DNA of 64,000 bases from Candidatus Poribacteria bacterium (GCA_965197475.1 CBDANF010000003.1:1664001-1728000), one strand, 5' to 3'; positions 1,560 to 41,496 are shown, counted from the stretch's first letter. The notes: generated from the sequence alone by a model not told the origin. Numbers and translations: made by a program.

Positions 1560-2243
1560 ATGAAAAATATGTTGGTATTAGCAGGAATTGTGTTGATGAT
1601 AGCCTGTTTTGTTATCAGCACGAGCGACATGGCACAGGCGGAGGAAGTCTTGGGAACAGGAACAGCAGCACTGCTCGGAGGAGACCTAACCGACCCAGAA
1701 GACGATGGTGCTCCTGATTCAGATGAAGGTTACAACGCCATTTTCTCAGCCAACGAAGAACCCGGATTCGGGGGCGGGGAATTTGCGTTTAACGTCTTTG
1801 ATAACATCCTTGGCGGCGGCAATGCCAAATGGTGCTGCGGACGTGGGGGCGGCATTCCGGAGGAAGGTCTACACGTGACAGCTGAGTTTGAGGAGGTGTA
1901 CGGATTGACACACTTCACCGTATCTTCAGCGAACGATGCTGCTGGGAGGGACCCTACAGTGTGGGAGGTTCAGGGGTCGAACGACGGCGAAGAGTTTACG
2001 ACCATCTTTTCTCACGACGGGGCTAGCGTTTGGGATCAGCGACTGCAAGTCATCCGTTTTGATGCAGGGGAAGATTTCGACGTGCAAACCACCGGGTATC
2101 GGTTTTTTCGGCATGTTACTTTTGCCACCGCGGGGGGCTTTCAAATTGGCGAAATTGAGTACTTCGGCGATGATAGTTTTGTCGTAGTAGACCCTAAAGC
2201 CAAGCTCACAACCACATGGGGAAGCATCAAAAACGTCCGATAA
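1560..2243 (+). CDS. Secreted discoidin/F5-8C-like protein (Cys-containing paralog)
   Basis: AGGAGG RBS at 1545-1550 before ATG 1560. Signal peptide, then FDN...KWCC, HFTVSSAND..RDPTVWEVQGSNDG and FQIGEIEYFG motifs, then the C-terminal TTWGSIK motif. Confidence 0.85.
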   Translation: MKNMLVLAGIVLMIACFVISTSDMAQAEEVLGTGTAALLGGDLTDPEDDGAPDSDEGYNAIFSANEEPGFGGGEFAFNVFDNILGGGNAKWCCGRGGGIPEEGLHVTAEFEEVYGLTHFTVSSANDAAGRDPTVWEVQGSNDGEEFTTIFSHDGASVWDQRLQVIRFDAGEDFDVQTTGYRFFRHVTFATAGGFQIGEIEYFGDDSFVVVDPKAKLTTTWGSIKNVR

Positions 2244-2581
2244 GCGCAAATATCGGACATTTTCTAAATCGGCTTGAATCCAGTAATAACTGGGTTTGAG
2301 CCGTTTTTCATATCCGCTTGAAACCGTATGGACTATACTGGGGAGGACCTTTTCGATTATGAACCGCGAAAATCTTCATGCTCATATTGATTATGAGCTT
2401 ATAACAGCGGTTCATCTTGGCGCAAATGCCAGCAAGAAAGCGAAGTCAACAACGAATGCAACGATCGTGAGTCGTGCCGCTGTGGGTAACCTACTCTAAT
2501 ATAGCAAAATAAGCCAAACCTGTCCAAAATGTTTTTACGTTTTTTAGCATTTGATTGTCTCCGATAAGAAGATCATATCCA

Positions 2582-2794
2582 CTATTTTTTCTCTGTAGGA
2601 ATTATAGATGTAATCGTCCATGGAATCTTTTTATAGATATAGGTTGATAACCAGGAGAAGTAAACTATTGTTACAATAGTGGCCGCAATGGTAGTAGTGC
2701 TTCCCTCAAAAAGACGAAAGACCTCAATAAGAATACCAAAAATACTGAAAGCAACAAACCAATAAACATATTTCCATTTTCGGGATATAGACAT
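2582..2794 (-). CDS. Small two-TM membrane protein, paralog of the N-terminus of 2836..3291
   Basis: Hydrophobic ORF. WKYVYWF...TTIAATIVTI...STYI aligns with WRYVFWF...TTAAIVVTI...ATYI in the neighbour. Confidence 0.6.
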   Translation of the reverse strand: MSISRKWKYVYWFVAFSIFGILIEVFRLFEGSTTTIAATIVTIVYFSWLSTYIYKKIPWTITSIIPTEKK

Positions 2795-2835
2795 ATTACA
2801 TACTCCATTAAACGAATGAGGAACTGTAGTATTAT

Positions 2836-3291
2836 CTAATAAGTTCCTGTTATTTCTGTACTACATACGCGATATAGTATTCCACCTGGCTGCGAACGCC
2901 TAATTTGGTTATGTTTTACTTTGTCCATATGACATTGATAGACATTTTTACTGCAGCCTCTGGTTTCCTCGTCTCCTTTGCATGTATACATGAATCTATG
3001 TCCCCTGCTCGCCAAACTAGATAGATAACGCGATGTCTCGCCACATTGCAAACATTTCCACTTATTTCCCGCTATACGAACTATGTTCCATATACCCCAT
3101 TGCACTTTCCCTTCAATATAAGTCGCGATTCCCGAAACACTGAGTATTGTTACAACAATCGCTGCGGTAGTTGCGATGGGTTCATCAGCAAAAGTTAGGT
3201 AGGTTTTAATGATTTTAATGAGAAAAGCATAAAGTCCGAAAACGGCAAACCAGAAAACATATCGCCATCCAGGATGTATCATAATAGACAT
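2836..3291 (-). CDS. Membrane protein with Cys/His-rich (zinc-ribbon-like) C-terminal domain
   Basis: Two TM helices, then CLQC...C...C...CH...C. Start placed at MSIMIHP by similarity to the neighbouring paralog. Confidence 0.6.
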   Translation of the reverse strand: MSIMIHPGWRYVFWFAVFGLYAFLIKIIKTYLTFADEPIATTAAIVVTILSVSGIATYIEGKVQWGIWNIVRIAGNKWKCLQCGETSRYLSSLASRGHRFMYTCKGDEETRGCSKNVYQCHMDKVKHNQIRRSQPGGILYRVCSTEITGTY

Positions 3292-3507
3292 ATAAGACCC
3301 CATTATGTCAGTAGGACAGTTCCGGAACTGTGTTGACATCCGAAACTGCCCAGACAAGTTACCTTGTTGTGGATTAATCAACTAATTACGCCCAACATCG
3401 CTACCAATACTGTCCGTAGTAATAGCCACCATCATTACAACCACGCTAAATGTCAAACTTTTTTCTAAAAATTCGCAAAATTTTATGGTATTTATACCAT
3501 TTTTAGA

Positions 3508-3538
3508 AATTATATACGGAATTCCCTGGTTTTGTCAA
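3508..3538 (-). promoter_or_regulatory. Sigma70-like promoter for the 2582-3291 genes
   Basis: TTGACA and TATAAT about 18 nt apart on the minus strand. Confidence 0.45.
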
Positions 3539-3630
3539 GTTTTTTTGAAGAAAAAAATTATTGTTTTCGGAATTATTTTGAATTTCAGCGCAAATTTATA
3601 TTTTTACGGTGGTTTGAAACAATTCATACA

Positions 3631-4272
3631 TCATGGCGATAACCTTTCGATTTCCCAATCGCCACTCTCTTTCAAAGTATAACGGATTCTATCGTGAAGA
3701 CGGCTTGGACATCCTTGCCAAAATTCAAGCATATTTGGAATAAGTCTGTAGCCTCCCCAGTGTGACGGGCGCGGAATGCCAATGTCTGAATACTTTTGTT
3801 CTGCTTTTTTGAAGTTTGTTGTCAGATGTTCTCGCCCAGAAATAACAACGCTTTGCCGTTCTGCCCATACAGCGAGTCGACTGTCAATTGGACGGTTGGC
3901 GAAATATGCATCCGATTCAGCGGCTGTCATCTTTTCAACCGTGCCGTTGCTTCTCACCTGACGATCAAGTTCTCGCCAATAGAATACAAGCGCGGCATGC
4001 GGGTTCTCTGCCAATTCCTTCCCTTTTTGGCTGTCATAGTCTGTATAGAAACAGAAGCCGTTTGCGTCAAAACCTCTAAGGACAACCATGCGGGCAGAGG
4101 GGATACCGTCTGGTGTTGCGGTCGCTAAAGTCATTGCGTCTGGCAGATCAATCCCTGCTTCTATTGTCTCGTTAAACCATTTTTTAAACTGTTCAAAAGG
4201 ATTTTTAGCAGCACTGATTTCGGTTAATTCGCCATGTGCTTGATATTCCCTGCGGAGTTTGTTAGCGTTCAT
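3631..4272 (-). CDS. pdxH: Pyridoxamine 5'-phosphate oxidase
   Basis: AMTLAT..PSARMVVL, RPSHWGGY and EFWQG...RLHDR motifs. Confidence 0.95.
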   Translation of the reverse strand: MNANKLRREYQAHGELTEISAAKNPFEQFKKWFNETIEAGIDLPDAMTLATATPDGIPSARMVVLRGFDANGFCFYTDYDSQKGKELAENPHAALVFYWRELDRQVRSNGTVEKMTAAESDAYFANRPIDSRLAVWAERQSVVISGREHLTTNFKKAEQKYSDIGIPRPSHWGGYRLIPNMLEFWQGCPSRLHDRIRYTLKESGDWEIERLSP

Positions 4273-4273
4273 T

Positions 4274-5782
4274 TTATTTCTTCCAGAAATTTGGTGAAAA
4301 AAGAATAAGCACGGTATAGATTTCTAAACGTCCTAATAACATGCAGAAAGACAAAATAAATTTACCAGCAGTAGTGATATGTGCATAATTATCAATCGGC
4401 CCTACGTCACCGAGTCCGGGACCGATGTTACCCATCGATGCTATTGTGCAGCTGGCAGCAGTAATTAAATCTAATCCCAAGGTTGCCATGATACACGTCA
4501 CAATCGCAAATATGCCGATAAAAAAGAAGAAAAAACCAAGGACATGTGTAAGTACTTCAGGGGGTACAACTCTGTCATTAACGCGTACGGGAAGGACAGC
4601 GTGTGGAAAGATAAGTCGTTTAATTTCTGCCCCACTCTGCCTGATAAGAAGTAGGAAGCGAAGCTGCTTCATTCCGCCACCTGTTGATCCAGCGCACCCA
4701 CCATAAAACATGAGCGTTACTAAAACGAATTGGGATAAGTAGGGCCACATTTCAAAATTAGCAGTGCCATAGCCTGTTGTTGTAGTTATAGACACAACTT
4801 GAAATGCGGCATAACGAATGGAATCCCACACGGAATCATAGGGAATCAGTCCATCCTTGTTTTGAAATCGAACAATGTTCCAAGAAACGAGAAAAATGCT
4901 CAAAAGAATCACGATACAATAGAATCGGAATTCGGTGTCTTTGATGTAACTTTTGACATCACCTCGAAGGGCGCGATAGTGCAAGGCAAAATTAGTTCCT
5001 GCGAGGAACATAAAAACAATGATAACAACTTCAATATAAACACTATTGTAATCTGCGATGCTACCATTTTTGGTTGAAAATCCGCCAGTTGCCATTGTCC
5101 CAAAGGTATGACAGAGCGCGTCAAAAAGAGTCATGTCGCCAAGCCAAAGCAGCAATGTTTCAAGGACTGAGAGCAGGATGTAAACACCCCAGAGGAGTTT
5201 TGCTGTTTGTGCAATACGTGGTGTAAGTCTATCTGTTTGTGGACCTGGTGCCTCCGCACGAAACAGCTGCATTCCGCCAACACCGAGCATTGGGAGTATT
5301 GCTACAGCAAGCACAACAATCCCCATACCGCCAAGCCAGTGGCTGAAGCTGCGCCAAAACAGCATTGCATGCGAAAGATGTTCAATCTCTGTCAGTACTG
5401 TAGCACCGGTTGTTGAAAAACCGGACATAGATTCAAAATAGCAGAAGGAAAATTCTGCCCAAGAAGTGCGCCCTTCTGCAGAGAAAATCCCTGCGAAAAG
5501 ATAAGGAAACGACCCAAAGAGGGCGACAATCACCCAACCTAAAGCAACAACCGCGAAACCTTCACGTATGCCGAGTTCCGGTTCTGCCGGTTGAATAGTG
5601 AAGCGGAGAATTAAGCCGACACATAGGGTTATAACGGTAGCGTAAACGAACGCCAGCATATCGTCTTTCGGTTCGCCTGCGCTTACAAAATAATAGATAC
5701 CTATGCACAACGGCAATAACATTGTGCCAGCGAGACAAATTAATAGGTTGCCAAGTGTGTGAAAAATGAGTTTTCGACTCAT
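4274..5782 (-). CDS. trkH: Trk potassium uptake membrane protein
   Basis: FESMSGFSTTG, ATGGFS, TTTGY and GGCAGSTGGG pore loops; LLGRLEIY. Confidence 0.95.
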   Translation of the reverse strand: MSRKLIFHTLGNLLICLAGTMLLPLCIGIYYFVSAGEPKDDMLAFVYATVITLCVGLILRFTIQPAEPELGIREGFAVVALGWVIVALFGSFPYLFAGIFSAEGRTSWAEFSFCYFESMSGFSTTGATVLTEIEHLSHAMLFWRSFSHWLGGMGIVVLAVAILPMLGVGGMQLFRAEAPGPQTDRLTPRIAQTAKLLWGVYILLSVLETLLLWLGDMTLFDALCHTFGTMATGGFSTKNGSIADYNSVYIEVVIIVFMFLAGTNFALHYRALRGDVKSYIKDTEFRFYCIVILLSIFLVSWNIVRFQNKDGLIPYDSVWDSIRYAAFQVVSITTTTGYGTANFEMWPYLSQFVLVTLMFYGGCAGSTGGGMKQLRFLLLIRQSGAEIKRLIFPHAVLPVRVNDRVVPPEVLTHVLGFFFFFIGIFAIVTCIMATLGLDLITAASCTIASMGNIGPGLGDVGPIDNYAHITTAGKFILSFCMLLGRLEIYTVLILFSPNFWKK

Positions 5783-5837
5783 AGTTTTCTATGGTGATCA
5801 GTTATAGTGAACTTGTAATTATTGAAAACTATTGACA

Positions 5838-5860
5838 GCGCGCTTACAAAGCGCGCCTAC
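5838..5860 (-). repeat. GTAG-type REP palindrome
   Basis: Reverse complement GTAGGCGCGCTTTGTAAGCGCGC. Near-identical copy at 27254-27276. Confidence 0.7.
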
Positions 5861-5893
5861 AGGTGGGTGTCTACTTATTTGAACTTTATTCAG

Positions 5894-7267
5894 TTAGACT
5901 CTCCGAGCTGCAAACATATCTTCCACAATTGGTATTGCATCTGGCATACTGAAGACAATAACGCGATCAGCAGGTTGAATGGCGGTTTCACCGTGTGGAA
6001 TAATAAGGTTTTCGCGACGGAGTATTGCCCCGATAAATGCGTTGTCAGGAAATTTGGTTTTCAACGAACCGAGTTCTTTGTGTGCAATTTTCGCGTTTAC
6101 ACCTGTGATGATCTCAATGACTTCTGCGTCAATTTCATGCAGTGAAGCAACTGAGACGATATTTCCTCGACGAATCAGACGCAATAGGTTGCTGACAACG
6201 GTCAAGTGTCTACTGACTGCGCCATCCAAACGGGGAATCCGAGCCAACAACGGAAGATATCGCGGTTGTTGAATTAAAGCGAGGGCACGTTGCGCTCCGT
6301 GTTCCTTAGCGGTCATGCATGCCATAATATCGTTTTCATCATCGCCAGTTACCGAAACAAATCCGTTAACGTCCTCTACGCCAGCTTCTTCTAACAATTG
6401 GAATTGAAGGTAATTTCCACGCAGAACGGTTGTCCGTTTTAAGGTCTGCGATGCGAGTTCTGCCATTTTCTCATCTGACTCAATGAGCTTTACATCAGTG
6501 CCATTTCCCTCAAGAACGCGTGCAAGCTCAATACCGATAGCACTTGCCCCAACAATTAAAACACGGTTAAGATGTCTGTTGAAAATTATGCCGAAAAGCC
6601 GGAACAGCTGCTCAATAGCCAATGCGCTTCCGATGACGAAGACATCATCACCCTGTTTGAGGATATCATCACCTCTCGGAATAATAACGTTTTGTTGACC
6701 GCGCCTTTTGATCGCTGCAAATCGGATATCGGAGATAACACCTTTCGTATCCAATTCAGCAAGAGATTTTCCTATGAAAGGATTCCGCTGTTTTATTCGG
6801 AAAGCAGCAAGCTGAATCCTGCCATCTTCAAATTCAACAATTTCTCGAGCTTCGGGGGTTTTCAAGAGACGGGTAAATTCCTCAACGCACAAATGCTCAG
6901 GATTAACAAGGAGGTCTATCCCGAAGTCTTTCGGTGTCAATCCACTTTCATCGGAGAAATAATCTGGATTTGAAACGCGTGCGATTTTAGTTTCAACCTC
7001 GTACCGATCTGCAATTTGACATGCGAGCATGTTGATCTCATCGCTGTTGGTGACAGCAATGATGATTTCGGCATCACTGATACCCGCATCTTTGAGCAGT
7101 ACCGGTGATGCACCTGACCCGCAGAGGGTTTGCAAATCTAACTGTTCGTTGACGCGTTGACACGCTTCTTCGGACTCATCAATTAAGACAACATCGTTAT
7201 CATCAACAGTTAGCAATTTGGCTGTATGAAATCCGACTTCACCTGCGCCTATGATGATTGCTTTCAT
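5894..7267 (-). CDS. trkA: Trk potassium uptake NAD-binding subunit
   Basis: Two RCK_N/RCK_C pairs; IIGAGEVG; AVTNSDEINMLAC. Confidence 0.95.
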   Translation of the reverse strand: MKAIIIGAGEVGFHTAKLLTVDDNDVVLIDESEEACQRVNEQLDLQTLCGSGASPVLLKDAGISDAEIIIAVTNSDEINMLACQIADRYEVETKIARVSNPDYFSDESGLTPKDFGIDLLVNPEHLCVEEFTRLLKTPEAREIVEFEDGRIQLAAFRIKQRNPFIGKSLAELDTKGVISDIRFAAIKRRGQQNVIIPRGDDILKQGDDVFVIGSALAIEQLFRLFGIIFNRHLNRVLIVGASAIGIELARVLEGNGTDVKLIESDEKMAELASQTLKRTTVLRGNYLQFQLLEEAGVEDVNGFVSVTGDDENDIMACMTAKEHGAQRALALIQQPRYLPLLARIPRLDGAVSRHLTVVSNLLRLIRRGNIVSVASLHEIDAEVIEIITGVNAKIAHKELGSLKTKFPDNAFIGAILRRENLIIPHGETAIQPADRVIVFSMPDAIPIVEDMFAARRV

Positions 7268-32930: not shown

Positions 32931-34991
32931 TCACAGCATCCCCAAAAACGCATCAATCTCGGTTGTTGGAGTTTGACAGACATAATTTTCGCAGACATAA
33001 GCCGTTGTGCTGTTATCAATCTGCGGTTTGTTTGCAAGTAGCGGCAACGCCCCACCATCATTCGGTTCGCTCAAGGCAACAATTTTGTTGGGTAGATACA
33101 TGCCGTGTAACGCAGTCAACATCGCTTCCGTTTTCGTATCCCTTTTTCCCCCAACTATAGCGATCTCCTTCGGAGTCGATATCAGGAACGCTAACTCACA
33201 AAGCAATTGTCCAGAGCCTGAAGGCATCACTTCTAACTGATTAAAATAGAGTTTCAATGTCTCTACAGCTTTGTTGTGGAATTCCGGTTTGTCCAGATGT
33301 TTGGCAAGTCGGAATAGACTATGGATAGCCATGGATACCCCTGCGGGTGTGGCACCATCATACGCGGATTTGGATTGGACAATGAGCGATTCGTGCGCTT
33401 TGCCTGTAAAGAAGAATCCATCCCCTGCTTCATCCCCAAACTGGTCAATCATCAGATGTGCAAGGCGTTCTGCCTCAGTGAGCCACCTGGGTTCAAAACT
33501 CGCTTCGTAAAGCGCGATTAAGCCCGCAATGAAATAGGAATAATCTTCAAGATAGGCGTTAAGGTGGCTTTTGCCCTCGCGGTAGGTGCGAAACAAAAGT
33601 CCGTTATCTTGGGAGAGTGTCGTCAACACAAACTCAGCGGATTTTTCACAGGCGGTAAGGTATTCAGGTTTTCTGGTCAATTGGTATCCCATCGCCATGC
33701 CACGGATCATAATGCCATTCCAACTGGTTAGAATTTTATCATCAAGTCCAGGTTTAATCCGTTTTTCTCTTTCCTCAAATAACTTTTGCCTACCGTCTGC
33801 AAGGAGTGCCTCTAATTCATCTTGATCCATTCTCAATTTTCGAGCGAAGATGTCCGGGGGTGTTTGGACGTGAAGTATATTTTCACCTTCAAAATTCCCC
33901 TGCGGTGTGATGTCATAATACTCGCAAAAAATTTCAGCGTTCTTTTCCCCGATAATATCTTCCACATCGGGCAGTTCCCATACAAAAAATTTGCCTTCAA
34001 CCCCTTCGCTATCTGCATCTTGTGTAGAGTAGAAGCCACCTTTTTCAGCGTCGTACATCTCACGCAGCACATAATCTAAAGTTTCTGTGGCTATGTCACG
34101 GTAAAAAGAGTTTTGCGTGGCTTGGTATGCTTCAAAATAAGCGACAACAAGTTGGGCATTGTCATAAAGCATCTTCTCAAAGTGCGGCACAAGCCAGCGT
34201 GCGTCTGTAGAATATCTGTGGAAACCACCACCAAGCTGATCATACATACCACCGAGTGCCATTTTTTGCAAAGTGAGTTCTACCATCTCTAACGCATTCG
34301 GATTGCCGCTGTGGTGCCAATAACGCAAAAGAAAAGGGAGTCCCATACTTGGTGGGAATTTGGGGGCATTGCCAAATCCACCATATTGCGAATCGAATTG
34401 GGAACGGTAGTGTTGGAACGCTTTTGTTATAAGTTCTTCAGTGAGTTCATGTTCGTGCGGATCAACAAGATTACTCATCTGATTGAGTTGTGTTGTGAGT
34501 TGATCTGCTTGTTCCAGTACCTGTGCGTTCTTTTCGTTAAATGCTTCTGCAACGGCGTGCATCACTTTTGGGAACCCTGGTCTGCCATATCGATCTTCGG
34601 GCGGATAATAGGTGCCACCGTAGAAAGGTTTCAAATTGGGTGTGAGGAAAACAGTCATAGGCCAACCGCCGTGACGTGTCATAATTTGGACAGCGTTCAT
34701 GTAAATTTCATCTAAATCGGGGCGTTCTTCTCTATCTACCTTGATATTCACGAACAGTTCGTTCATGACTGCTGCAATATCTTCATTTTCAAAGGATTCG
34801 CGTTCCATGACGTGGCACCAATGACAAGCAGAGTAACCGATACTGAGAAGAATAGGTTTCTGTTCGCGTTTTGCGCGTTCCAACGCTTCTTCACCCCACG
34901 GATACCACTCAACAGGGTTGTGTGCGTGCTGAAGCAGATAAGGGCTTGTTTCATGAATAAGGCGATTGGTATGTTTGAGGGTATCGTGCAT
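32931..34991 (-). CDS. Thioredoxin-domain protein, YyaL/SSP411 (DUF255) family
   Basis: [27 protein letters not shown] and [11 protein letters not shown]. The ORF extension to 35150 overlaps the tRNA and is not real. Confidence 0.93.
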
Positions 34992-35062
34992 GTGCATTCT
35001 CCAGTGTCTGGGAGTCCGAGTTAAGAAGGCAGGTAATCTACTCCCGCTTTTATAAATGAAAA

Positions 35063-35134
35063 TACCGCTACGGGGATTCGAACCCCGGTTTGATGGCTGA
35101 GAACCATCTGTCCTAACCCCTAGACGATAGCGGC
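35063..35134 (-). tRNA. tRNA-Glu (anticodon CTC), CCA not encoded
   Basis: GCCGCTATCGTCTAGGGGTTAGGAC-A-GATGG TTCTCAG CCATC...GGTTCGAATCC...TAGCGGTA cloverleaf. Confidence 0.95.
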
Positions 35135-35179
35135 TTATATTTTTACGCAATAAGTAGTTTCGGAATTACGCTTATGTTT

Positions 35180-37453
35180 TTAATTAGTTAGCTGAATCTT
35201 AACGATTTCATTTATAAGGTTAAAATCAATCTCTTGCAAATCATTGATAGGTAATCTAATTTCCAACTTACTTAAACGTTTCGAATTAAACTTTCTGTAA
35301 TAGTTATATCGCCATTTTTCACCATTTATAGCAGCACAGATAAAAATTCCAAAATTTTCATATTCTTTATATTCATCTTTTATATCCAGAACAAACACAT
35401 CTGGATTTGCGGCATATTCATAATCATGATAAAAAGCGCAACATGATCCCCTATTAGACGATATTGTGATTGTTCCTGGTGGATAAATTACATTAACACT
35501 ATTTTTATCAACAAAACTTGAAATACCATTGTTAAATTCAGATGTACTAATTAGGGGTAAAGAACCCAATGGAAGTGTTTTTACACGTCCACTATTTCCC
35601 TTCTTAATGGATTTGAAAAATGTTGTTAAATTGAAAAGTCCACATTTTGGTAATCTTAATTCCTTTTCTTTTCCTTTCCGGTCTATAATAGATTTTCCAT
35701 CAATAAGATTGTTCTTTACAAATGAAACATCACAATGATAGTTTTCTGTATCATGTTGACTAATAAACATTTCAGGTGCGCATTCTAAACTTTCCATGTC
35801 TAACAAACTGCAATCAAGTTCTTTTCTGATAGGGTCAGGAACTGTTTGCGTAGCGATATAATTGCCAATTGCTTTAGCAATAGTATTCATATTGCCTTTT
35901 GCTTGTGATACGTTTTGAGTTTTAGTTCTTACTTCATCATCTTTTAGTGTCGCCCATACTACTTTATCAGTAGAGACATTGTGTGGACGATGACATTGTA
36001 AGATAATAGCATGAGTGCCTTTACTTACATTTGGATAAAATAAATCTTCTGGCAATGTTATCACAGCTTTTAATGTATGTTCTTTTAACATGTTTTTGCG
36101 CCAACTAAGTTCTTCACGCTTGTTATTGGTAGAAGTCATTACGGATGTAGGAAGAACAGCAAAAAGCCAACCGTCATCTTTGATGAACTTAAGTGCTACA
36201 TCTACAAATTCCCATTCAAAGGCATTTTCAAGTGCAAATGGCGGATTCATTAATACTTTATCCGCTTTAATATCTAATTTTGCATTCAAACTGTCTCCTT
36301 CAATAATATTACTACTTCCATCCCCACGAAATATCATGTTGACAATAGCTAATGTGGCAATTACGGGGTCATTGTCTATACCATAAAAGTTACCTGACTT
36401 GAAAGTATGTAAATTGTTCTTATCTCTTTTTACTTTATCTAAAGCCGCAACTAAAAATCCTCCTGTTCCACATGCGGGATCAAACACTATATCGTCATAT
36501 TTTACGTCAAGTAGTTTTGCTGCCCATTCTGTTATATGCCGAGGTGTAAAGACAATTCCAAGTTCATTAGCATCATTAGCATATTTTAGAAATTGTTCGT
36601 AGAATTCACCAAGCACATCTATTCCACTATCAATAGCTGATGCTATGTTTAAGTCGCGTAACAAATCTATTGTTTGACATAAAGCAGCTCTATATTTCAT
36701 ATGGTTATCTTGTGATGGTGGCAAGGTAATCTTTATTTGATCGAAGTATTCCTTTTTATTATGTTTTTGAAGGGTAACTTCTGCCCTTGTATTAATATCT
36801 CTAATTAGACGCGTAGCATTATTACTTAGAGATAGTTTCTCATCTTCTGCTAAAGCAAGCAAAATACAAGCCATTACACTGGCTCGATCTCTCTTGTTAA
36901 TTGCACCCTGATGCAAAATCTTGTTAATATTTTTGGTTTTTGATCTAAATCTCTCATAATCTCCCATGTCGTATTCATCTAACCTACCTGTTCCATTCAT
37001 GATTAGAGAATCCATTTGTTTTGGAGATATAAACCCTGTTGCCCTTCTACCGTTAATAGTTAGTATGTTCCACGATTCACCTACTAAGCATTTTGTTTCT
37101 ATGTGATATGTTGCATCAGGACTGCCTGCAATACCTGTAATTATTTTGCAATTTAGTTCTGATTTATTATTAATATCGTTAGCATATCCTATAGCTTCTT
37201 TTACTGCAAGGTCAAGATCATTAATTGAACTTTTTGCTTCAATAGTCCAATATTCACGCTCATTTAATTTCACGATATATTCTGGGCGTTTCAACCCTAA
37301 AGCTAATTTGAGTTGCGGATCGTTTGCAAGTTCATTTTGCGCAAATACTTGTCCACCATTCTTTAGCGATTGTGTTCTCCAACCAAGTTCTTTAAGCTTA
37401 TCAAGAATAAACCCATATAATCTGAATTCGCTATCTTTTATCTTTTTGTTCAT
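35180..37453 (-). CDS. Single-chain type IIG/IIB-like restriction-modification enzyme (REase, N6-adenine MTase, TRD)
   Basis: N-terminal RPEY...IEAK nuclease-like motif; FTPRHI, DPACGTGGFL and NPPF; C-terminal BcgIB/HsdS-like segment (PLISTSEFNNG...AFYHDY). Confidence 0.85.
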   Translation of the reverse strand: MNKKIKDSEFRLYGFILDKLKELGWRTQSLKNGGQVFAQNELANDPQLKLALGLKRPEYIVKLNEREYWTIEAKSSINDLDLAVKEAIGYANDINNKSELNCKIITGIAGSPDATYHIETKCLVGESWNILTINGRRATGFISPKQMDSLIMNGTGRLDEYDMGDYERFRSKTKNINKILHQGAINKRDRASVMACILLALAEDEKLSLSNNATRLIRDINTRAEVTLQKHNKKEYFDQIKITLPPSQDNHMKYRAALCQTIDLLRDLNIASAIDSGIDVLGEFYEQFLKYANDANELGIVFTPRHITEWAAKLLDVKYDDIVFDPACGTGGFLVAALDKVKRDKNNLHTFKSGNFYGIDNDPVIATLAIVNMIFRGDGSSNIIEGDSLNAKLDIKADKVLMNPPFALENAFEWEFVDVALKFIKDDGWLFAVLPTSVMTSTNNKREELSWRKNMLKEHTLKAVITLPEDLFYPNVSKGTHAIILQCHRPHNVSTDKVVWATLKDDEVRTKTQNVSQAKGNMNTIAKAIGNYIATQTVPDPIRKELDCSLLDMESLECAPEMFISQHDTENYHCDVSFVKNNLIDGKSIIDRKGKEKELRLPKCGLFNLTTFFKSIKKGNSGRVKTLPLGSLPLISTSEFNNGISSFVDKNSVNVIYPPGTITISSNRGSCCAFYHDYEYAANPDVFVLDIKDEYKEYENFGIFICAAINGEKWRYNYYRKFNSKRLSKLEIRLPINDLQEIDFNLINEIVKIQLTN

Positions 37454-37556
37454 GATATACTCCTTCAGTATAATTTGATAAACATAATATCACACATGAT
37501 AAAATGTTTCAAATCATTTTCCCTTTCATTTAATTGTAACTGATATGAGTCAGTTG

Positions 37557-37588
37557 ATAGGGACCACGCCAAGAGGCGTGGTCCCTAT
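37557..37588. repeat. Perfect 14-bp GC-rich hairpin upstream of the R-M gene
   Basis: ATAGGGACCACGCC-AAGA-GGCGTGGTCCCTAT. Confidence 0.8.
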
Positions 37589-37666
37589 TCCCTATCTAAC
37601 AATGTTGAAATTAAGTATACTAGAAAAAATATAATGTCAAGAACTTTTTATAAATCTAAAACTATT

Positions 37667-38189
37667 CGGAATTAGTAGTTTTGGGATTTGGAAACTCACT
37701 CTAAACCCTTGCAAAGAGTGAGTTTTGCTTGTTTTAATTCGTCAAAAATGGTATAATATTGGTAAGTTAATAAGGTTATTTTTTTAAGGAATAGGACTTA
37801 CCAATGAAAAACTTTTGGTCGAAATGGTTTGTAAGTGCCTCCAGTGGGATATTAGGCAGAATGCTGCTTGTTGTTTTATGTTTAGGAGCGGGTTTTGTTG
37901 GTGGTCAATATATTTCAATCCCAATAGATAAAGAAATAATCACAGGTGCAGGACTCTTCATCGGTATTATTGCACTTTTTATTACAGCTTTTTTCCCTAT
38001 CTGGCTTCCTATGATATTGGAATGGTCTATTATGAAGAAAGATTTTAAAATCAAATCACAGGAATTAGAAAATGAGAACCTAAAATTGAAGTTAAAATTG
38101 CAACAGCAAGAACAACAATCTTTGCCAGATCAAGATGAGTAATATATTCAATAACCTACTGAAATCCAAGTCCCAAACTACTTATTCCA
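37667..38189. mobile_element. Nested mini-cassette with related terminal repeats carrying one gene
   Basis: Left end CGGAATTAGTAGTTTTGGGATTTGGA; right end (rc) TGGAATAAGTAGTTTGGGACTTGGA. Degenerate flanks AAACTATT / TAACTAAA. Confidence 0.7.
37804..38142 (+). CDS. Two-TM protein with C-terminal coiled coil
   Basis: AGGA RBS, upstream TGGTATAAT extended -10, two hydrophobic helices and a KSQELENENLKLKLKLQQQ tail. Confidence 0.7.
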   Translation: MKNFWSKWFVSASSGILGRMLLVVLCLGAGFVGGQYISIPIDKEIITGAGLFIGIIALFITAFFPIWLPMILEWSIMKKDFKIKSQELENENLKLKLKLQQQEQQSLPDQDE

Positions 38190-38300
38190 TAACTAAATAT
38201 GTGACATAAAACATAAACCCCACATCAAAACAAAAGGAAATCATAAGATAGCAACATCTCACCCGCTCCCTCACATACAAACACACAAAGAAATAATAAA

Positions 38301-39284
38301 ATGAATTCACCTAAAATTTTTCTTTCACATGTAAAAGAAAATGAACCAATTATCAAATCTATTGATCAAAATCTCACAAGATACGGTATTAATGTAATTA
38401 CTGACTACAAAAATATAGAAGGTGGTTCAAATTGGGAAAAAACATTAGAAAAACTTATAGAAGGTAGTGACTATTTTATCCTATGCTTTTCCAAAGAATT
38501 TGAACAACGTAAAAAAAGTGTCGCACATAGAGAATTGGATTATGCTATAAAATGTGCAAAAGATATTCCCTTTTGGAAAAAATGGATAATTCCAATCAAA
38601 ATTAATGAATGCACAATCCCTGATAGAGAAATCAGATCAGGTGAAAAACTTACTCACCTACAATGGATCAGCTTATTTCCTCGTAGCAAATTCAAAAACG
38701 GCATTAAATCTATTGTAAACATAATAAAGAGCGAACAATTGGAAAATACAACAAACGATAAAACAAGAAAGCACAATAGAAATAACAGTTATGTTAAAGA
38801 ACGAAAAAGATTAAATAGAATAATTTCTTTCGAAATAGATATGTCTCCTATTGATTTTATTAAATCACTCCCCCAAATAAAATCGGATTTATTACAGGAA
38901 ATTGGAACAATAAAAGATTCCAAAACCCCTATAGGTGGAACAACTATTGACATCTGCGAAATAAATGAATTGTATATTGATGCACTTCAAAAGATCCTAA
39001 CAAAACTTGCATCTTTCTATTCATCAGATTATTTTATAGACCAATCTCCACAAAATTTCTTTTCAGAGATAATATTTGCACGTAACCCTTTTTACAACAT
39101 AATAACTGAACCAGATGGCATAGGAACAGGGGGGACCATAAGGGGTATTCATTATACCCGCTTAGTAATCGAAGATATTGAAAATCTTATCAAAATAATG
39201 GTTGATGGATTACTATACCCTAAAGGTGATTATCCTGGTCTTGATTACGACAATTGGCTAAAACACTGGCGAGATTCAAGTTAA
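38301..39284 (+). CDS. TIR-domain protein with uncharacterised C-terminal domain
   Basis: KIFLSH...TDYKNIEGGSNW...SDYFILCFS...VAHRELDYA...IIPIKINECTIP, a TIR_2 pattern with Glu at the catalytic position. Confidence 0.85.
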   Translation: MNSPKIFLSHVKENEPIIKSIDQNLTRYGINVITDYKNIEGGSNWEKTLEKLIEGSDYFILCFSKEFEQRKKSVAHRELDYAIKCAKDIPFWKKWIIPIKINECTIPDREIRSGEKLTHLQWISLFPRSKFKNGIKSIVNIIKSEQLENTTNDKTRKHNRNNSYVKERKRLNRIISFEIDMSPIDFIKSLPQIKSDLLQEIGTIKDSKTPIGGTTIDICEINELYIDALQKILTKLASFYSSDYFIDQSPQNFFSEIIFARNPFYNIITEPDGIGTGGTIRGIHYTRLVIEDIENLIKIMVDGLLYPKGDYPGLDYDNWLKHWRDSS

Positions 39285-39399
39285 ATTATAATCATACATG
39301 ACAGCACTTCACATATAAACACACAGATATTCACAAAATAATAGGTAAGCCCAAAACTACTTATTGCGTATTTTTATAGGTGTTGCTCTACTGCCGATA

Positions 39400-39834
39400 T
39401 TACGATTCGCTTTCAGTTGTTAGTCTTCCTGCGTGTTCAATCATCTCACTTAACACATCAAGATTAACATCTGATAGGTTGCGAAAACTGACGCTGCTTT
39501 TACCAGTCTTGACTTTGCCGAGTCGGGAGTCATAGATTTCAGCCAAGTAACGTTTTCCTTCGACTGCATTTACATACACGCTGAAGTAATTTTTCTGTCG
39601 AGCTAATCCAACAAGAAACCATTCGACCTGCTTCTTATCAGAACGTTGATATGAAAAATTTCCGTAGCCAATGATCTGCTGTTCGCTGCCGCCCCAAAAA
39701 ACACCTTCCCACATACAGTAGTCCTGATCTGGTAATGCTGTCTTGATTAGCGTGTGAAGTTCCTCTAAAACCTTTCTAATATCTGGTTCTTGGTTTGCAA
39801 TATACTCATCAGGTGAGGTTTCTACCCGTTCCAT
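39400..39834 (-). CDS. DUF1801 (YdhG-like) protein
   Basis: IIGYG..Y...EWF.VGLARQKNYFSVY and GKVKTGKS motifs. Confidence 0.8.
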   Translation of the reverse strand: MERVETSPDEYIANQEPDIRKVLEELHTLIKTALPDQDYCMWEGVFWGGSEQQIIGYGNFSYQRSDKKQVEWFLVGLARQKNYFSVYVNAVEGKRYLAEIYDSRLGKVKTGKSSVSFRNLSDVNLDVLSEMIEHAGRLTTESES

Positions 39835-39893
39835 CTTGTCTCCTCTCAGGTTTACAACACAACTGTGTTCAAGTTGTTACTTTGTAAAGAAAG

Positions 39894-39967
39894 TGGCTGC
39901 CCGGGAAGGACTCGAACCTTCACTACATGGTCCAGAGCCATGCGTCCTACCATTAGACGACCGGGCA
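39894..39967 (-). tRNA. tRNA-Gln (anticodon CTG) with encoded CCA
   Basis: TGCCCGGTCGTCTAATGGTAGGAC-G-CATGG CTCTGGA CCATG...GGTTCGAGTCC...CCGGGCAGCCA. Confidence 0.95.
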
Positions 39968-39982
39968 TTGACCTTCGTGTTA

Positions 39983-40011
39983 AGTATATCTTAATAGGTA
40001 CTGCTTGTCAA
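39983..40011 (-). promoter_or_regulatory. Sigma70 promoter of tRNA-Gln
   Basis: TTGACA-17 nt-TATACT, 15 nt upstream of the tRNA. Confidence 0.75.
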
Positions 40012-40020
40012 TGTTTTCTG

Positions 40021-41496
40021 CTATTGTAGTGTGATCTTTTCCGAAAGGGTATAGAAAATATCCAAGAGTCCGATGAGGATAGTTGGAACAACAAAGACAC
40101 TCAATAGGGCAAAGGTGCCTTTAGAAAAGGAGAAATCATCCGTATCCTCGGCAGTTTCAAGATACATCGCCTTGACAATACGAGCATAGTAGTAGAGGGA
40201 GACGACACTGTTTAGCAAACCGATAAATGCCAGCCAATACATCCCTTTACTGATGACAGCATTGAACAGAAGCCATTTTCCAAAGAAACCGGCAAAAGGT
40301 GGGATACCTGTCAGTGAAAAAAGGAAAATCGCCATCGAACCAGCAACCAAAGGTGCGCGGGAGGAAAGCCCCCGATAACCGTCAATCATTTCACTACCTG
40401 ATTCGTTCGCAATTAAGACGACAACGTAAAATGCTCCCAAGTTCATAAAAAGGTAAACGATGAGATAAAAGAGAATGGCACCAAGTCCCTCAGGAGTGAG
40501 TAGAACAGCACCCATCAATAGGTAGCCTCCATGGGCAATACTTGAATATGCCAATAACCGTTTGACATTGCGCTGTGGCAGTGCAGCCAAATTACCTACT
40601 GTCATTGTGAGTGCGGAGATTATCGCTAACATTAATCCCCAATCAATAGATTGCATAATTTCCGGTTTGCTAAATCCTGAGTGGAAAAATCTGATGAACA
40701 GCGCAAATCCTGCGGCTTTTGAGGCAACAGATAGGAAAGCCGTTATCGGAATAGGCGCGCCTTCGTAAACATCAGGTGACCACATGTGGAAGGGAACAGA
40801 AGCGATTTTATAACCTATACCCGCCAGGATGAAGGTTATCGCAATTAGCAGGCCGAGTGCGGTTACTTTACCCGAAGCAAGTACTATGGGAAGTTGATTA
40901 CTGATTTCAGACAAGTTTCCCGTTCCTGTCATGCCGAACAGTAGGGACAATCCAAATAGCATTGTTCCAGATGCCACGGCACCATAAGTAATATATTTGA
41001 ATGCAGCTTCACTTGAACGCGGACTATGCGTCAAGAACCCGGCGAGGATATAGGAGGTAAGGCTGACCGTTTCCAACGAAACGAATATCATCAACAGATT
41101 TGTTGACGATGCCATAAGAAACATGCCGAAGGTAACGGCTAACAATAATGCATGGTATTCGCCTTTCAATCTTACATCAAGTTCCTCTGAACGGAGGGAG
41201 AAAAGAATCGTTGCAGCGGTTGCCAGAAGCAGGAGGACCTTGAAGAATATAGCAAATCCATCAAGTTGAATCATTCCAAGAAAGAGGGATTTCGATTCGT
41301 TAGTGCCGAGGGACAAGTGTGTAAATATAACTGCGATTAAGGTAACCCCGAGTCCCACAAGGGAGAGATATGCGACCTTTTCACTTTCCCGATTTTTAAC
41401 AACGAGATCAAGGATTATGACTGCAGCAGCGAAAACGACGAGGAGAATTTCTGGGCTAAAATGCAGAAGACTTTCAATGTTTTTTAAGGGTTCCAA
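40021..41496 (-). CDS. nuoN: NADH-quinone oxidoreductase subunit N
   Basis: EAAFKY, KIASVPFHMWSPDVYEGAP and KRLLAYSSIAH. Confidence 0.95.
   Translation of the reverse strand: MEPLKNIESLLHFSPEILLVVFAAAVIILDLVVKNRESEKVAYLSLVGLGVTLIAVIFTHLSLGTNESKSLFLGMIQLDGFAIFFKVLLLLATAATILFSLRSEELDVRLKGEYHALLLAVTFGMFLMASSTNLLMIFVSLETVSLTSYILAGFLTHSPRSSEAAFKYITYGAVASGTMLFGLSLLFGMTGTGNLSEISNQLPIVLASGKVTALGLLIAITFILAGIGYKIASVPFHMWSPDVYEGAPIPITAFLSVASKAAGFALFIRFFHSGFSKPEIMQSIDWGLMLAIISALTMTVGNLAALPQRNVKRLLAYSSIAHGGYLLMGAVLLTPEGLGAILFYLIVYLFMNLGAFYVVVLIANESGSEMIDGYRGLSSRAPLVAGSMAIFLFSLTGIPPFAGFFGKWLLFNAVISKGMYWLAFIGLLNSVVSLYYYARIVKAMYLETAEDTDDFSFSKGTFALLSVFVVPTILIGLLDIFYTLSEKITLQ

Follow-up and report, generated by a model that had tools for sequence, protein, structure and literature searches.

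The segment at positions 35146-39368 of the window (the whole stretch of DNA analysed, 64,000 nucleotides from the genome of a sponge symbiont, Candidatus Poribacteria) entered its locus as one unit by transposition, duplicating TATTTTTA, and is very probably a transposase-less mobile insertion cassette of the IS1595 family, derived from passenger-carrying elements resident in the same genome. It is 4,223 bp long and AT-rich compared with its surroundings, and its target was an AT-rich spacer of ~39 bp between a DUF1801 gene and tRNA-Glu(CTC). The features of the locus are as follows.

35063-35134, minus strand: tRNA-Glu(CTC) (ARAGORN; Rfam tRNA, 58.7 bits)
35138-35145, no strand: target-site duplication TATTTTTA, left copy (direct reading)
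35146-35169, plus strand: outer left terminal inverted repeat L1, CGCAATAAGTAGTTTCGGAATTAC; 18/20 against the terminus of six identical 1,970-bp IS1595 copies
35180-37453, minus strand: single-chain R-M-S protein, 757 aa (Pfam N6_Mtase 1.5e-35; Methylase_S 3.7e-07)
37484-37512, minus strand: promoter-like site ahead of the R-M gene, TTGAAA-17-TATTAT with TG (10/12, consensus match only)
37533-37642, minus strand: conserved unit of ~110 bp, upstream of the R-M gene, in which 37557-37588 form a perfect 14-bp hairpin
37667-38189, plus strand: putative nested mini-element, 523 bp, bounded by IS1595-type ends of its own (L2 starting at 37667, R1 finishing at 38189)
37723-37775, plus strand: subterminal piece of the mini-element, containing TGGTATAAT (37749-37757); conserved in ~2.45-kb IS1595 copies and in the L043 element
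37804-38142, plus strand: membrane-type ORF, 112 aa; the N-terminal two thirds are hydrophobic, the tail is charged and rich in Q/E/K
38301-39284, plus strand: TIR-domain protein, 327 aa, with a helical C-terminal domain of no known family (TIR_2 2.1e-18)
39345-39368, minus strand: outer right terminal inverted repeat R2, CGCAATAAGTAGTTTTGGGCTTAC read inwards; 19/20 against the 1,970-bp IS terminus
39369-39376, no strand: target-site duplication TATTTTTA, right copy (direct reading; exact 8 bp)
39400-39834, minus strand: flanking host gene DUF1801, 144 aa (Pfam 7.7e-09)
39894-39967, minus strand: tRNA-Gln(CTG) (ARAGORN; Rfam)

The original prediction described imperfect 24-bp inverted repeats and an exact 8-bp duplication around AT-rich cargo inserted 11 bp upstream of tRNA-Glu, and the sequence bears out each of these. 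On direct reading the outer repeats agree at 21 of 24 positions with the first 15 identical (CGCAATAAGTAGTTTTGGGCTTAC being the reverse complement of 39345-39368), and they are also alike past the core in a common TTAC at positions 21-24; the GC content is 0.30-0.35 within the cassette compared with 0.44-0.46 outside; and 11 bp separate the 5' end of tRNA-Glu from the repeat, whilst the DUF1801 stop codon lies 23 bp from the right duplication. Contigs from public runs cover both outer junctions with zero differences, the two samples concerned belonging to one study and possibly being the source samples. The cargo that had been foreseen, an R-M enzyme, a membrane protein and a TIR protein, corresponds to the ORFs of 757, 112 and 327 aa, and the claimed lack of transposition and integration genes was likewise upheld: a tblastn search with three resident transposases found no transposase or remnant inside the cassette (best match 18 aa, E 0.079), no integrase or recombinase was seen among its ORFs and Pfam domains, and the cargo domains N6_Mtase, Methylase_S and TIR_2 are unrelated to transposition.

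Empty sites were found in relatives, as had been anticipated, except that the exact allele with a single TATTTTTA was not seen, the spacer having diverged among these relatives, which are other species with a flank identity of ~85% or less. The cassette is present in 0 of 19 congener loci; in 15 of them tRNA-Glu stands directly beside DUF1801 as a simple empty site, and the remaining four comprise one with an insert of ~100 bp, one with another IS inside the tRNA and two lacking the tRNA. Metagenome contigs also join 35135/35138 to 39400/39404, these joints coming from relatives (29-40 letters on a side, likeness threshold 90). An insert of ~100 bp was observed in the spacer or tRNA region of G008 and G006, and an unrelated IS of ~1.25 kb lies inside tRNA-Glu in G006. 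The host genome has a second tRNA-Glu, with anticodon TTC, at G000:C3:311252.

The best promoter-like site of the region lies upstream of tRNA-Gln (40011-39983, 11/12), and the 144-aa DUF1801 gene stands between the two tRNA genes; that the insertion parted tRNA-Glu from the tRNA-Gln promoter, as originally remarked, is plausible. The promoter-like site at 37484-37512 points towards tRNA-Glu, and as the R-M gene reads into the tRNA with no terminator-like site between them, read-through from the cassette probably supplies tRNA-Glu now.

The ends of the cassette belong to a lineage that is abundant in this genome. The core AATWAGTAGTTT occurs exactly four times in the window, and five times when up to one mismatch is allowed, compared with 1.02 expected (1 of 100 shuffles reaches five); genome-wide there are 49 occurrences against 4 for the reversed control, and the 18-mer CGSAATDAGTMGTTTYGG gives 90 against 0. 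Other elements with these ends, and IS1595-type transposases sharing them, were to be expected from the original prediction, and both exist: nhmmer (E<=0.05) found 98 ends forming 39 adjacent +/- pairs, of which 37 enclose a transposase-like segment of 831-933 bp, and two representative transposases match PF12762 (1.4e-34 and 1.6e-36) as well as PF12760, to which can be added the transposase of a related element on another Poribacteria chromosome (L043), scoring 199.6 bits for NF033547 where the cut-off is 75. Perfect 8-bp AT-rich duplications flank nine of the 37 transposase-bearing elements. From its ends, which are common to transposase-bearing elements, and its 8-bp AT-rich duplication, the cassette is assigned to the IS1595 family; the DDE-K motif and a transposase of ~300 aa may point to the ISNwi1 or IS1016-like subgroup. 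Of 99 further genomes from this Poribacteria family, 93 carry ends of this type (control 0, except for one match in one genome), and judged by this distribution the ends are endemic in the family.

The R-M-S protein has three parts: at the N-terminus a domain bearing a PD-(D/E)XK-like motif, then a gamma-type N6-adenine methyltransferase, and at the C-terminus a single specificity (TRD) domain. It matches the type IIG REase_MTase model of PADLOC (6.9e-47) and HsdM-type structures in the PDB (down to 1e-17), and the MNPPF motif of its methyltransferase domain is nearly invariant among 33 sequences; with NPPF and a target-recognition domain in one chain, it classes by sequence as a type IIG/IIB-like enzyme, and its domains predict that it most likely restricts unmethylated DNA. 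The first 230 residues lie outside every Pfam domain; among them P57, E72 and K74 do not vary across the 33 sequences, and E58 and A73 hardly vary. A fold search with the model of this domain (pLDDT 87.8) placed BsaXI first at E 1.1e-3, followed by PD-(D/E)XK nucleases, with TM ~0.3 and no match reaching E 0.001, which hints at a putative nuclease. Copies of the ~110-bp hairpin unit, 77-84% identical, occur in G002, G012, G049 and G005, and adjoin different ORFs in G012 and G005.

Between the R-M and TIR genes lie two further end-like copies, absent from the original prediction, at 37667 (+, CGGAATTAGTAGTTTTGGGATT) and 38189 (-, TGGAATAAGTAGTTTGGGACTT), which flank the membrane ORF on both sides. 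They are of the CGGAAT type found in the resident ~2.45-kb IS subfamily; as the flanks of this mini-element agree at 5 of 8 positions and form no clean duplication, its nesting by transposition stays putative. Its subterminal piece shares 79% identity with five resident IS copies (53 bp aligned) and 86% with the L043 element (42 bp aligned), and TGGTATAAT within it may serve as a promoter. The 112-aa ORF had no Pfam match above cut-off and no PADLOC or NCBIfam match; homologs occur in G002 (69%) and in G055 (55%), where the ORF adjoins an IS end. A contig from an RNA library is identical over 37835-38270, a faint hint of transcription at this ORF.

The model of the TIR protein (pLDDT 73.5) gave 13 PDB matches at E<=0.001 over ~145 residues, the best being the SPARTA TIR-APAZ (8.7e-05), with the SARM1 TIR also among them. 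E78, which we take to be the catalytic glutamate position, is shared by 90% or more of the 15 sequences compared, and alignment and model together give a TIR fold carrying the conserved glutamate; the C-terminal half is a separate, exchangeable domain. The TIR half resembles NAD-cleaving TIRs and would, on a trigger, deplete NAD. No complete PADLOC system was matched that would provide a partner gene. Thoeris (ThsA/ThsB) was considered and rejected, the ThsB model reaching only E 0.0015 and the cassette having no SIR2, Macro or SLOG gene. From their domains, the R-M and TIR genes most likely represent two independent defence modules, and an anti-phage role of the cargo is suggested by the same assignments.

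The insertion itself would be explained by a DDE transposase from a resident IS1595 copy which, acting in trans, bound both outer repeats and carried with them the R-M-S enzyme with its own promoter-like sites, the TIR protein and the 523-bp mini-element. The best candidate donors would be the six 1,970-bp copies, which are 100% identical with intact frames and whose termini are 18-19/20 alike. Since searches of this genome and of 39 congeners gave no further copy of the cassette as a whole, movement without a transposase of its own is something that we infer.

That missing second copy also suits a different history, which we consider rather improbable: an autonomous element bearing a transposase and the R-M gene arrived, the transposase was lost or exchanged in situ while recombination at common repeats added the mini-element and TIR module, and the cassette as such never moved in trans. 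The autonomous form is known from L043, in which a 4,065-bp IS1595 element (2232-6296; both ends CGCAATAAGTAGTTTTGGGAT, duplication TTTATTTT) encodes a 294-aa transposase and a 751-aa R-M homolog, 78% identical to that of the cassette in amino acids and 76% in nucleotides over 2,250 bp, and placed at the same element end. Exchanges between IS copies are many, duplication mates being split between them (e.g., AATTTTAA at C3:1218950 and 2788505), and such pairing of non-matching flanks is as expected after inversions. One-ended modules of a repeat plus cargo are common: G049 has the R-M gene (90% nt) at another locus, together with a left repeat that has decayed, G011 has the TIR gene (90% aa) together with the right repeat and other flanking sequence, and the membrane ORF of G055 stands beside an IS end as noted. 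However, no trace of a transposase is left in the cassette, the outer repeats resemble each other past the core in the TTAC noted above, and two other transposase-free pairs in this genome have perfect 8-bp duplications (C3:4003175-4004139, 965 bp, TATGAAAA; C3:3407940-3409404, 1,465 bp, TAATTTTA), showing that such derivatives do insert. Mobilisation of the cassette in trans by a resident transposase is the reading that we prefer.

The presence of four end-like sequences within 4.2 kb, the other insertions at the spacer or tRNA in G008 and G006, and the occurrence of TATTTTTA/TAAAAATA beside other ends in this genome could instead point to a hot spot at which the R-M unit, the mini-element and the TIR unit inserted separately, the outer repeats coming from different elements and the 8-bp match having another origin. 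We hold this to be very unlikely, as the two outermost termini are correctly oriented and directly abut an exact direct repeat of 8 bp, the ends follow the order +,+,-,- of nesting and not that of adjacent elements, and no further duplications were seen between the parts. A genomic island targeted to the tRNA by a site-specific integrase would account for the adjoining tRNA gene and the foreign GC, but has almost no probability given that there is no integrase-like ORF, that the insertion lies outside the tRNA on its 5' side with no tRNA segment repeated and no tRNA 3' repeat at the far boundary, and that inverted repeats and an 8-bp duplication mark its limits; transposition in place of att integration, as originally proposed, therefore holds. 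An integron cassette was rejected along with an integrase-borne island, there being no recombinase ORF and the boundaries being of the kind just described.

The original prediction went on to propose a system that shuffles anti-phage genes. The modules do occur apart elsewhere, yet the cargo at other such ends is mixed (R-M genes are common, and secreted protease-like and unknown proteins occur too), and the lineage is therefore not a dedicated defence shuttle. A wider and rather doubtful possibility is that the IS1595 lineage of this Poribacteria family forms an integrase-free cassette platform, in which half-modules (R-M, methylase-HNH, TIR, small membrane proteins) recombine at conserved termini of 15-20 bp and nest, giving rise to new combinations that lack a transposase and are then moved by the many resident ones, the ~110-bp promoter/hairpin unit acting as a portable expression signal. 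If true, the defence genes of sponge symbionts would be reshuffled with an outcome like that of integrons.

Mobile insertion cassettes, passenger-carrying IS1595 elements and transposase-free R-M units are already in print, and the novelty of the cassette had been overrated. The qnrS2/qnrD cassettes are said to be examples of mobile insertion cassettes. [quoted passage not shown] The present cassette shares this build of IS ends around non-transposase genes and is likewise transposase-free; the ends are IS4/IS231 in MIC231-type cassettes and IS1595 here, the known cargo is resistance or metabolic genes whereas here it is R-M and TIR genes plus a nested mini-element, and mobilisation in trans is here deduced from sequence. 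Siguier, Gagnevin and Chandler reportedly described passenger-carrying (‘transporter’) IS of the IS1595 family in 2009. With these the cassette has in common the transposase family of its cognate elements (PF12762/PF12760, NF033547), the 8-bp AT-rich duplication and the passengers, and the L043 element is itself a passenger-carrying IS1595 with a homologous R-M gene; however, transporter elements have a transposase and the cassette has none. Tn7-like elements, large and autonomous multi-gene systems with target selectors, also carry defence genes, and resemble the cassette as a transposable vehicle for such genes, whereas the cassette is minimal, IS-derived and lacks a transposition gene.

Duplications of 8 bp rich in AT are reported, in the section concerned, for an IS1595-family member of the IS1016 subgroup (PMC12561309). 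The closest parallel is with the transposon-like R-M units of Furuta, Abe and Kobayashi (2010), which according to the sections describing them have inverted repeats and an 8-bp duplication and are transposase-free; the unit of Neisseria gonorrhoeae has 26-bp repeats, a type IIG gene, an S homolog and a hypothetical gene, and a relative has the empty site (PMC2853133). The cassette is like them in its transposase-free build, its repeats, its 8-bp duplication and its type IIG homolog. Those sections describe repeats confined to the unit and identify no cognate IS (PMC2853133), whereas the repeats of the cassette are those of a resident multi-copy IS1595 lineage, an autonomous version carrying the same cargo exists, and a TIR gene and a mini-element are aboard. 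As R-M units of this build, transposase-free with inverted repeats and an 8-bp duplication, have been on record since 2010, the cassette belongs to a known sort of element, of which it is a clear and well-documented example.

The cassette is bounded by two outer terminal repeats, and direct reading bore out all that the original prediction had said of them: inverted repeats of 24 bp, an exact 8-bp duplication and a distance of 11 bp to tRNA-Glu. The features at and around these ends are as follows.

35063-35134, minus strand: tRNA-Glu(CTC), with its 5' end 11 bp from the cassette repeat
35138-35145 and 39369-39376: 8-bp duplication TATTTTTA, directly outside both repeats
35146-35169, plus strand: outer left terminal repeat (IR-L), CGCAATAAGTAGTTTCGGAATTAC
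39345-39368, minus strand, read inwards from 39368: outer right terminal repeat (IR-R), CGCAATAAGTAGTTTTGGGCTTAC
39400-39834, minus strand: DUF1801 gene, 144 aa, between tRNA-Gln(CTG) and the cassette
39894-39967, minus strand: tRNA-Gln(CTG)

The two repeats are alike at 21 of 24 positions, the first 15 being identical, and the fall in GC content from 0.44-0.46 outside to 0.30-0.35 inside coincides exactly with them. Their match is beyond chance; the 12-nt core has four exact copies in the window and 49 in the 5.70-Mb genome (4 for a reversed control), and an 18-nt degenerate form of the end has 90 copies in the genome with none for the control. Both outer junctions are spanned without difference by contigs from public runs of two samples of one study, and these samples may be the source of the assembly.

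A search of the genome with a terminus profile (E ≤ 0.05) returned 98 ends, from which 39 adjacent plus/minus pairs were made by script. All but two of these pairs contain an 831-933-bp segment similar to one transposase, in size classes of 1,139, 1,970, 2,253, 2,296, 2,298, 2,420 and about 2,450 bp, and two representative elements carry the IS1595 DDE domain PF12762 (1.4e-34 and 1.6e-36) together with the zinc ribbon PF12760. Other elements with the cassette's ends, and an IS1595-type transposase sharing them, had been named as checks in the original prediction, and both are thus resident in the same genome. Identical 8-bp AT-rich flanks are found in 9 of the 37 transposase-bearing copies. 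Six copies of 1,970 bp are base-for-base identical with open transposase frames, and the termini of this class, CGCAATAAGTAGTTTTGGAC, match the cassette ends at 18 and 19 of 20 positions. Extra small ORFs (unknown proteins, DUF805, TPR-like) are present in most resident copies above 1.2 kb, so the carriage of passengers is habitual in this lineage. The ends are endemic to the family, being present in 93 of 99 other genomes of the family and in all 38 of the genus, and rare or absent further away. Mates of the 20 unpaired ends in the genome were mostly not found; two such sites, C2:54433 and C3:1780571, share about 1.1 kb consisting of the repeat plus a lipoprotein-like gene, with no second end at either.

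Two further observations concern the resident copies. The halves of some duplications are split between identical copies, AATTTTAA being found at C3:1218950 and 2788505 (copies C3:1216981-1218950 and 2786536-2788505) and TTTCACTT at 2474741 and 2588039 (copies 2472772-2474741 and 2586070-2588039), an arrangement that implies large inversions by recombination between IS1595 copies. In addition, a 276-aa ORF with IS3-type integrase-core motifs, recognized by eye, is identical or near-identical at two loci: at one it is inserted in a ~2.45-kb IS1595 copy (C3:3352277-3355745), and at the other it fills a 1,550-bp shell (C3:2344465-2346014) which has IS1595-type ends and flanks agreeing at 7 of 8 positions.

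The main comparator for the cassette lies in a complete Poribacteria chromosome (locus L043, 2232-6296), where a 4,065-bp element with cassette-type termini and a perfect duplication, TTTATTTT, encodes a 294-aa IS1595 transposase (NF033547, 199.6 bits); immediately behind it comes a homolog of the R-M protein, 751 aa long and 78% identical. The R-M stop codon adjoins the repeat there, as it does in the window. This shows the R-M gene to be a true passenger of IS1595 elements, and the window cassette is the transposase-less counterpart of this element; the absence of a transposase reported earlier extends even to remnants, none of which was found in the cassette. The modules also occur apart. 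One congener (G049) has the R-M gene, at 90% nucleotide identity, at a different locus, where the left repeat has decayed and the right one is absent. Another (G011) has the TIR gene, at 90% amino acid identity, beside the right repeat; the flank there differs, and upstream lies a host-like gene that is truncated. Taken as a whole, the core interpretation of an IS1595-type, transposase-free cassette is supported, and its mobilisation in trans is plausible.

The cassette flanks were compared with 19 congener loci, from other species no more than about 85% identical, and none of these contains the cassette. In 15 of the 19, tRNA-Glu lies a few tens of bases from the DUF1801 stop codon; of the others, one has an extra ~100-bp insert (G008), one an IS within the tRNA gene (G006), and two are without the tRNA. 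The empty site looked for in relatives is thus present as an arrangement, but the exact allele with a single TATTTTTA was not seen among the 19 loci because the spacer has diverged. Metagenome contigs that join 35135/35138 to 39400/39404 were rejected as a same-strain empty allele and ascribed to co-occurring relatives, since their sides are short and the threshold was 90%; they add nothing beyond what the congener genomes show. A joint from 37694 to 39346 (side 21) and backward joints from 37684 to 35136 look like repeat-driven alignments. As the cassette lacks an integrase and no part of the tRNA is duplicated, the view that it arrived by transposition rather than by att-site integration stands.

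The tRNA-Glu(CTC) spot seems prone to insertions of other kinds. An unrelated ~1.25-kb IS lies inside the gene in G006 (L029, G006:C1:4996000-5003400, reverse complement ~322-1570), and the gene is missing at the locus in L027 and L028. Two congeners have, in the spacer between DUF1801 and tRNA-Glu, an insert of ~100 bp that contains a GC-rich inverted repeat (…GGTAGGCGAGGTTTCCTAACCTCGC…; L018 of G008, ~2360-2480; L029, reverse complement, ~1590-1730), possibly a different miniature element.

The distance from the DUF1801 stop to tRNA-Glu in relatives is only about 20-45 bp, which suggests that this tRNA would normally be made from an upstream transcript, and the best promoter-like site lies upstream of tRNA-Gln. 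The R-M gene reads towards tRNA-Glu, with two promoter-like sites upstream of it and no terminator-like site between the two genes; after the insertion, read-through from the R-M gene would be the likely new source of the tRNA. The tRNA-Glu(CTC) seems dispensable: a tRNA-Glu(TTC) is present elsewhere in the genome, and among the congener loci one has a disrupted CTC gene and two have none.

Within the cassette, the original inventory of ends held for the outer pair but overlooked two inner end-like sequences, which bracket the 112-aa membrane-type ORF. The internal features, with the further copies of a hairpin unit, are as follows.

37533-37642: ~110-bp unit, with its hairpin at 37557-37588
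37667, plus strand: inner end-like sequence
ending 38189, minus strand: inner end-like sequence
L037 ~1500-1611; L040 ~1501-1593; G002:C12:74860-74972; G049:C60:28557-28645: copies of the ~110-bp unit in congeners

The mini-element so bounded has ends of the CGGAAT type, as in the ~2.45-kb subfamily, and a 53-bp subterminal piece in common with the ~2.45-kb copies and L043. It is for these reasons read as a putative nested deletion derivative, though without a clean duplication: 5 of the 8 flanking positions are shared between AAACTATT and TAACTAAA, and shifting the ends by 1-2 bases, by eye, gave no better agreement. Congener mini-elements of ~558 bp (G013) and 589 bp (G044, which retains a transposase N-terminal remnant) were set aside as counterparts, having only the ends in common with that of the window. 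The 112-aa ORF gave nothing above cut-off in PADLOC, Pfam or NCBIfam; it recurs beside an IS end in G055 and, in G002, in a low-GC island with an IS1595 transposase and a methylase-HNH gene.

A 438-nt sponge metatranscriptome contig is identical to window 37835-38270, spanning the membrane ORF and the inner right end up to just before the TIR gene. It comes from a different study, and the nested junction therefore exists in another sample; the junction may be transcribed, or the contig may reflect DNA carry-over. The RNA run holds a small share only; beyond this contig, absence of cover is uninformative.

The ~110-bp unit contains a perfect 14-bp GC-rich hairpin and, on the minus strand, a TTGACA...TATACT-like stretch, and is 77-84% identical in four congeners. 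It adjoins different ORFs in the two cases examined (G012 and G005), and Rfam, run on 34900-40100, returned the two tRNAs only and no match for this unit. Possible readings of it are a portable promoter/leader and a small mobile unit.

The 757-aa R-M protein combines a gamma-type N6-adenine methyltransferase domain with a single specificity domain; among PADLOC models, a type IIG restriction-methylase fusion fits it best. No family matches the first ~230 residues, which are nevertheless conserved in 48 database proteins, with P57, E72 and K74 invariant in an alignment of 33 sequences. The model of this region, a confident one (pLDDT 87.8), is closest in fold to BsaXI and next to PD-(D/E)XK nucleases, all weakly (best E 1.1e-3, TM about 0.3). 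The protein is read as a single-chain R-M-S enzyme, of which the modelled N-terminus is the probable nuclease part.

The 327-aa protein carries a TIR domain, its model matching the NAD-cleaving TIR domains of SPARTA and SARM1, and the glutamate at position 78 is conserved. None of the partner genes of known TIR systems accompanies it. The C-terminal half of the protein is helical and forms a unit of its own. Among 24 relatives in the database, 7 are alike over the whole length and 16 over the TIR half only, and ESM Atlas gave no usable match for the C-terminal domain. In P0072, a 248-aa database protein (alignment A2), this half stands behind a different N-terminus with Cys/His motifs which looks HNH-like by eye, an arrangement that suggests a candidate sensor-type domain paired with alternative effector domains. 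A scan of metagenome contigs with the TIR alignment gave 11 loci with only the TIR half in common, and IS1595 ends are absent at the two closest (L050 and L051). A defence function for the cassette cargo is plausible.

The genome has two further transposase-free pairs with perfect duplications (965 and 1,465 bp), their cargo unknown. A wider survey took in low-GC islands at solo ends and one further end pair, with the following cargo.

C2:1486202: type II methylase and MjaI-type endonuclease, in a low-GC island by a solo end
C3:1863128-1864550 (the further pair) and C3:2725263: methylase-HNH fusions
Other cargo: a weak HEPN/AbiU2 match, two secreted protease-like proteins, lipoprotein-like proteins and unknowns

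The N6_N4 methyltransferase-HNH fusions (406, 454 and 483 aa) make up three cases in two genomes, G000:C3:1863128-1864550, G000:C3:2725263 onward (offset 1079-2443) and L045:11498-12949, and adjoin IS1595-type ends or sit in an IS1595-associated low-GC island. R-M genes are frequent among the cargo surveyed. As to the proposed shuffling of anti-phage genes, the modules do occur separately, but the cargo is mixed, with protease-like, lipoprotein-like and unknown proteins, and the lineage is no specialised shuttle for defence genes. The most far-reaching interpretation compatible with the data, in which the IS1595 lineage serves sponge symbionts as a platform that shuffles defence-gene cassettes without an integrase, we consider unlikely.

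What one genus does hold is an unusually complete natural series of a single IS lineage, from the autonomous IS1595 with R-M, through the transposase-less composite with a homologous gene and TIR, to one-ended remnants and mini-elements, which documents a way for IS-derived cassettes to spread defence genes in sponge symbionts. The cargo is a small two-gene set, easy to test, and its TIR protein belongs to a family whose C-terminal domain is exchangeable.

A new kind of mobile element is not revealed here. Mobile insertion cassettes and passenger-carrying IS are already described (PMC3129680), 8-bp AT-rich duplications are reported for IS1595/IS1016 elements (PMC12561309), R-M units that lack a transposase but have terminal inverted repeats and 8-bp duplications are in the literature, a type IIG Neisseria case included (PMC2853133), and for sponge-symbiont metagenomes an enrichment in defence features is reported (PMC5099237). 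Our literature searches turned up no report of IS1595-derived cassettes carrying TIR or R-M genes in Poribacteria. Beyond the published R-M units and mobile insertion cassettes, the present cassette adds a direct tie to a resident IS1595 lineage and an autonomous sibling with the same cargo, as well as a TIR passenger and a nested mini-element.
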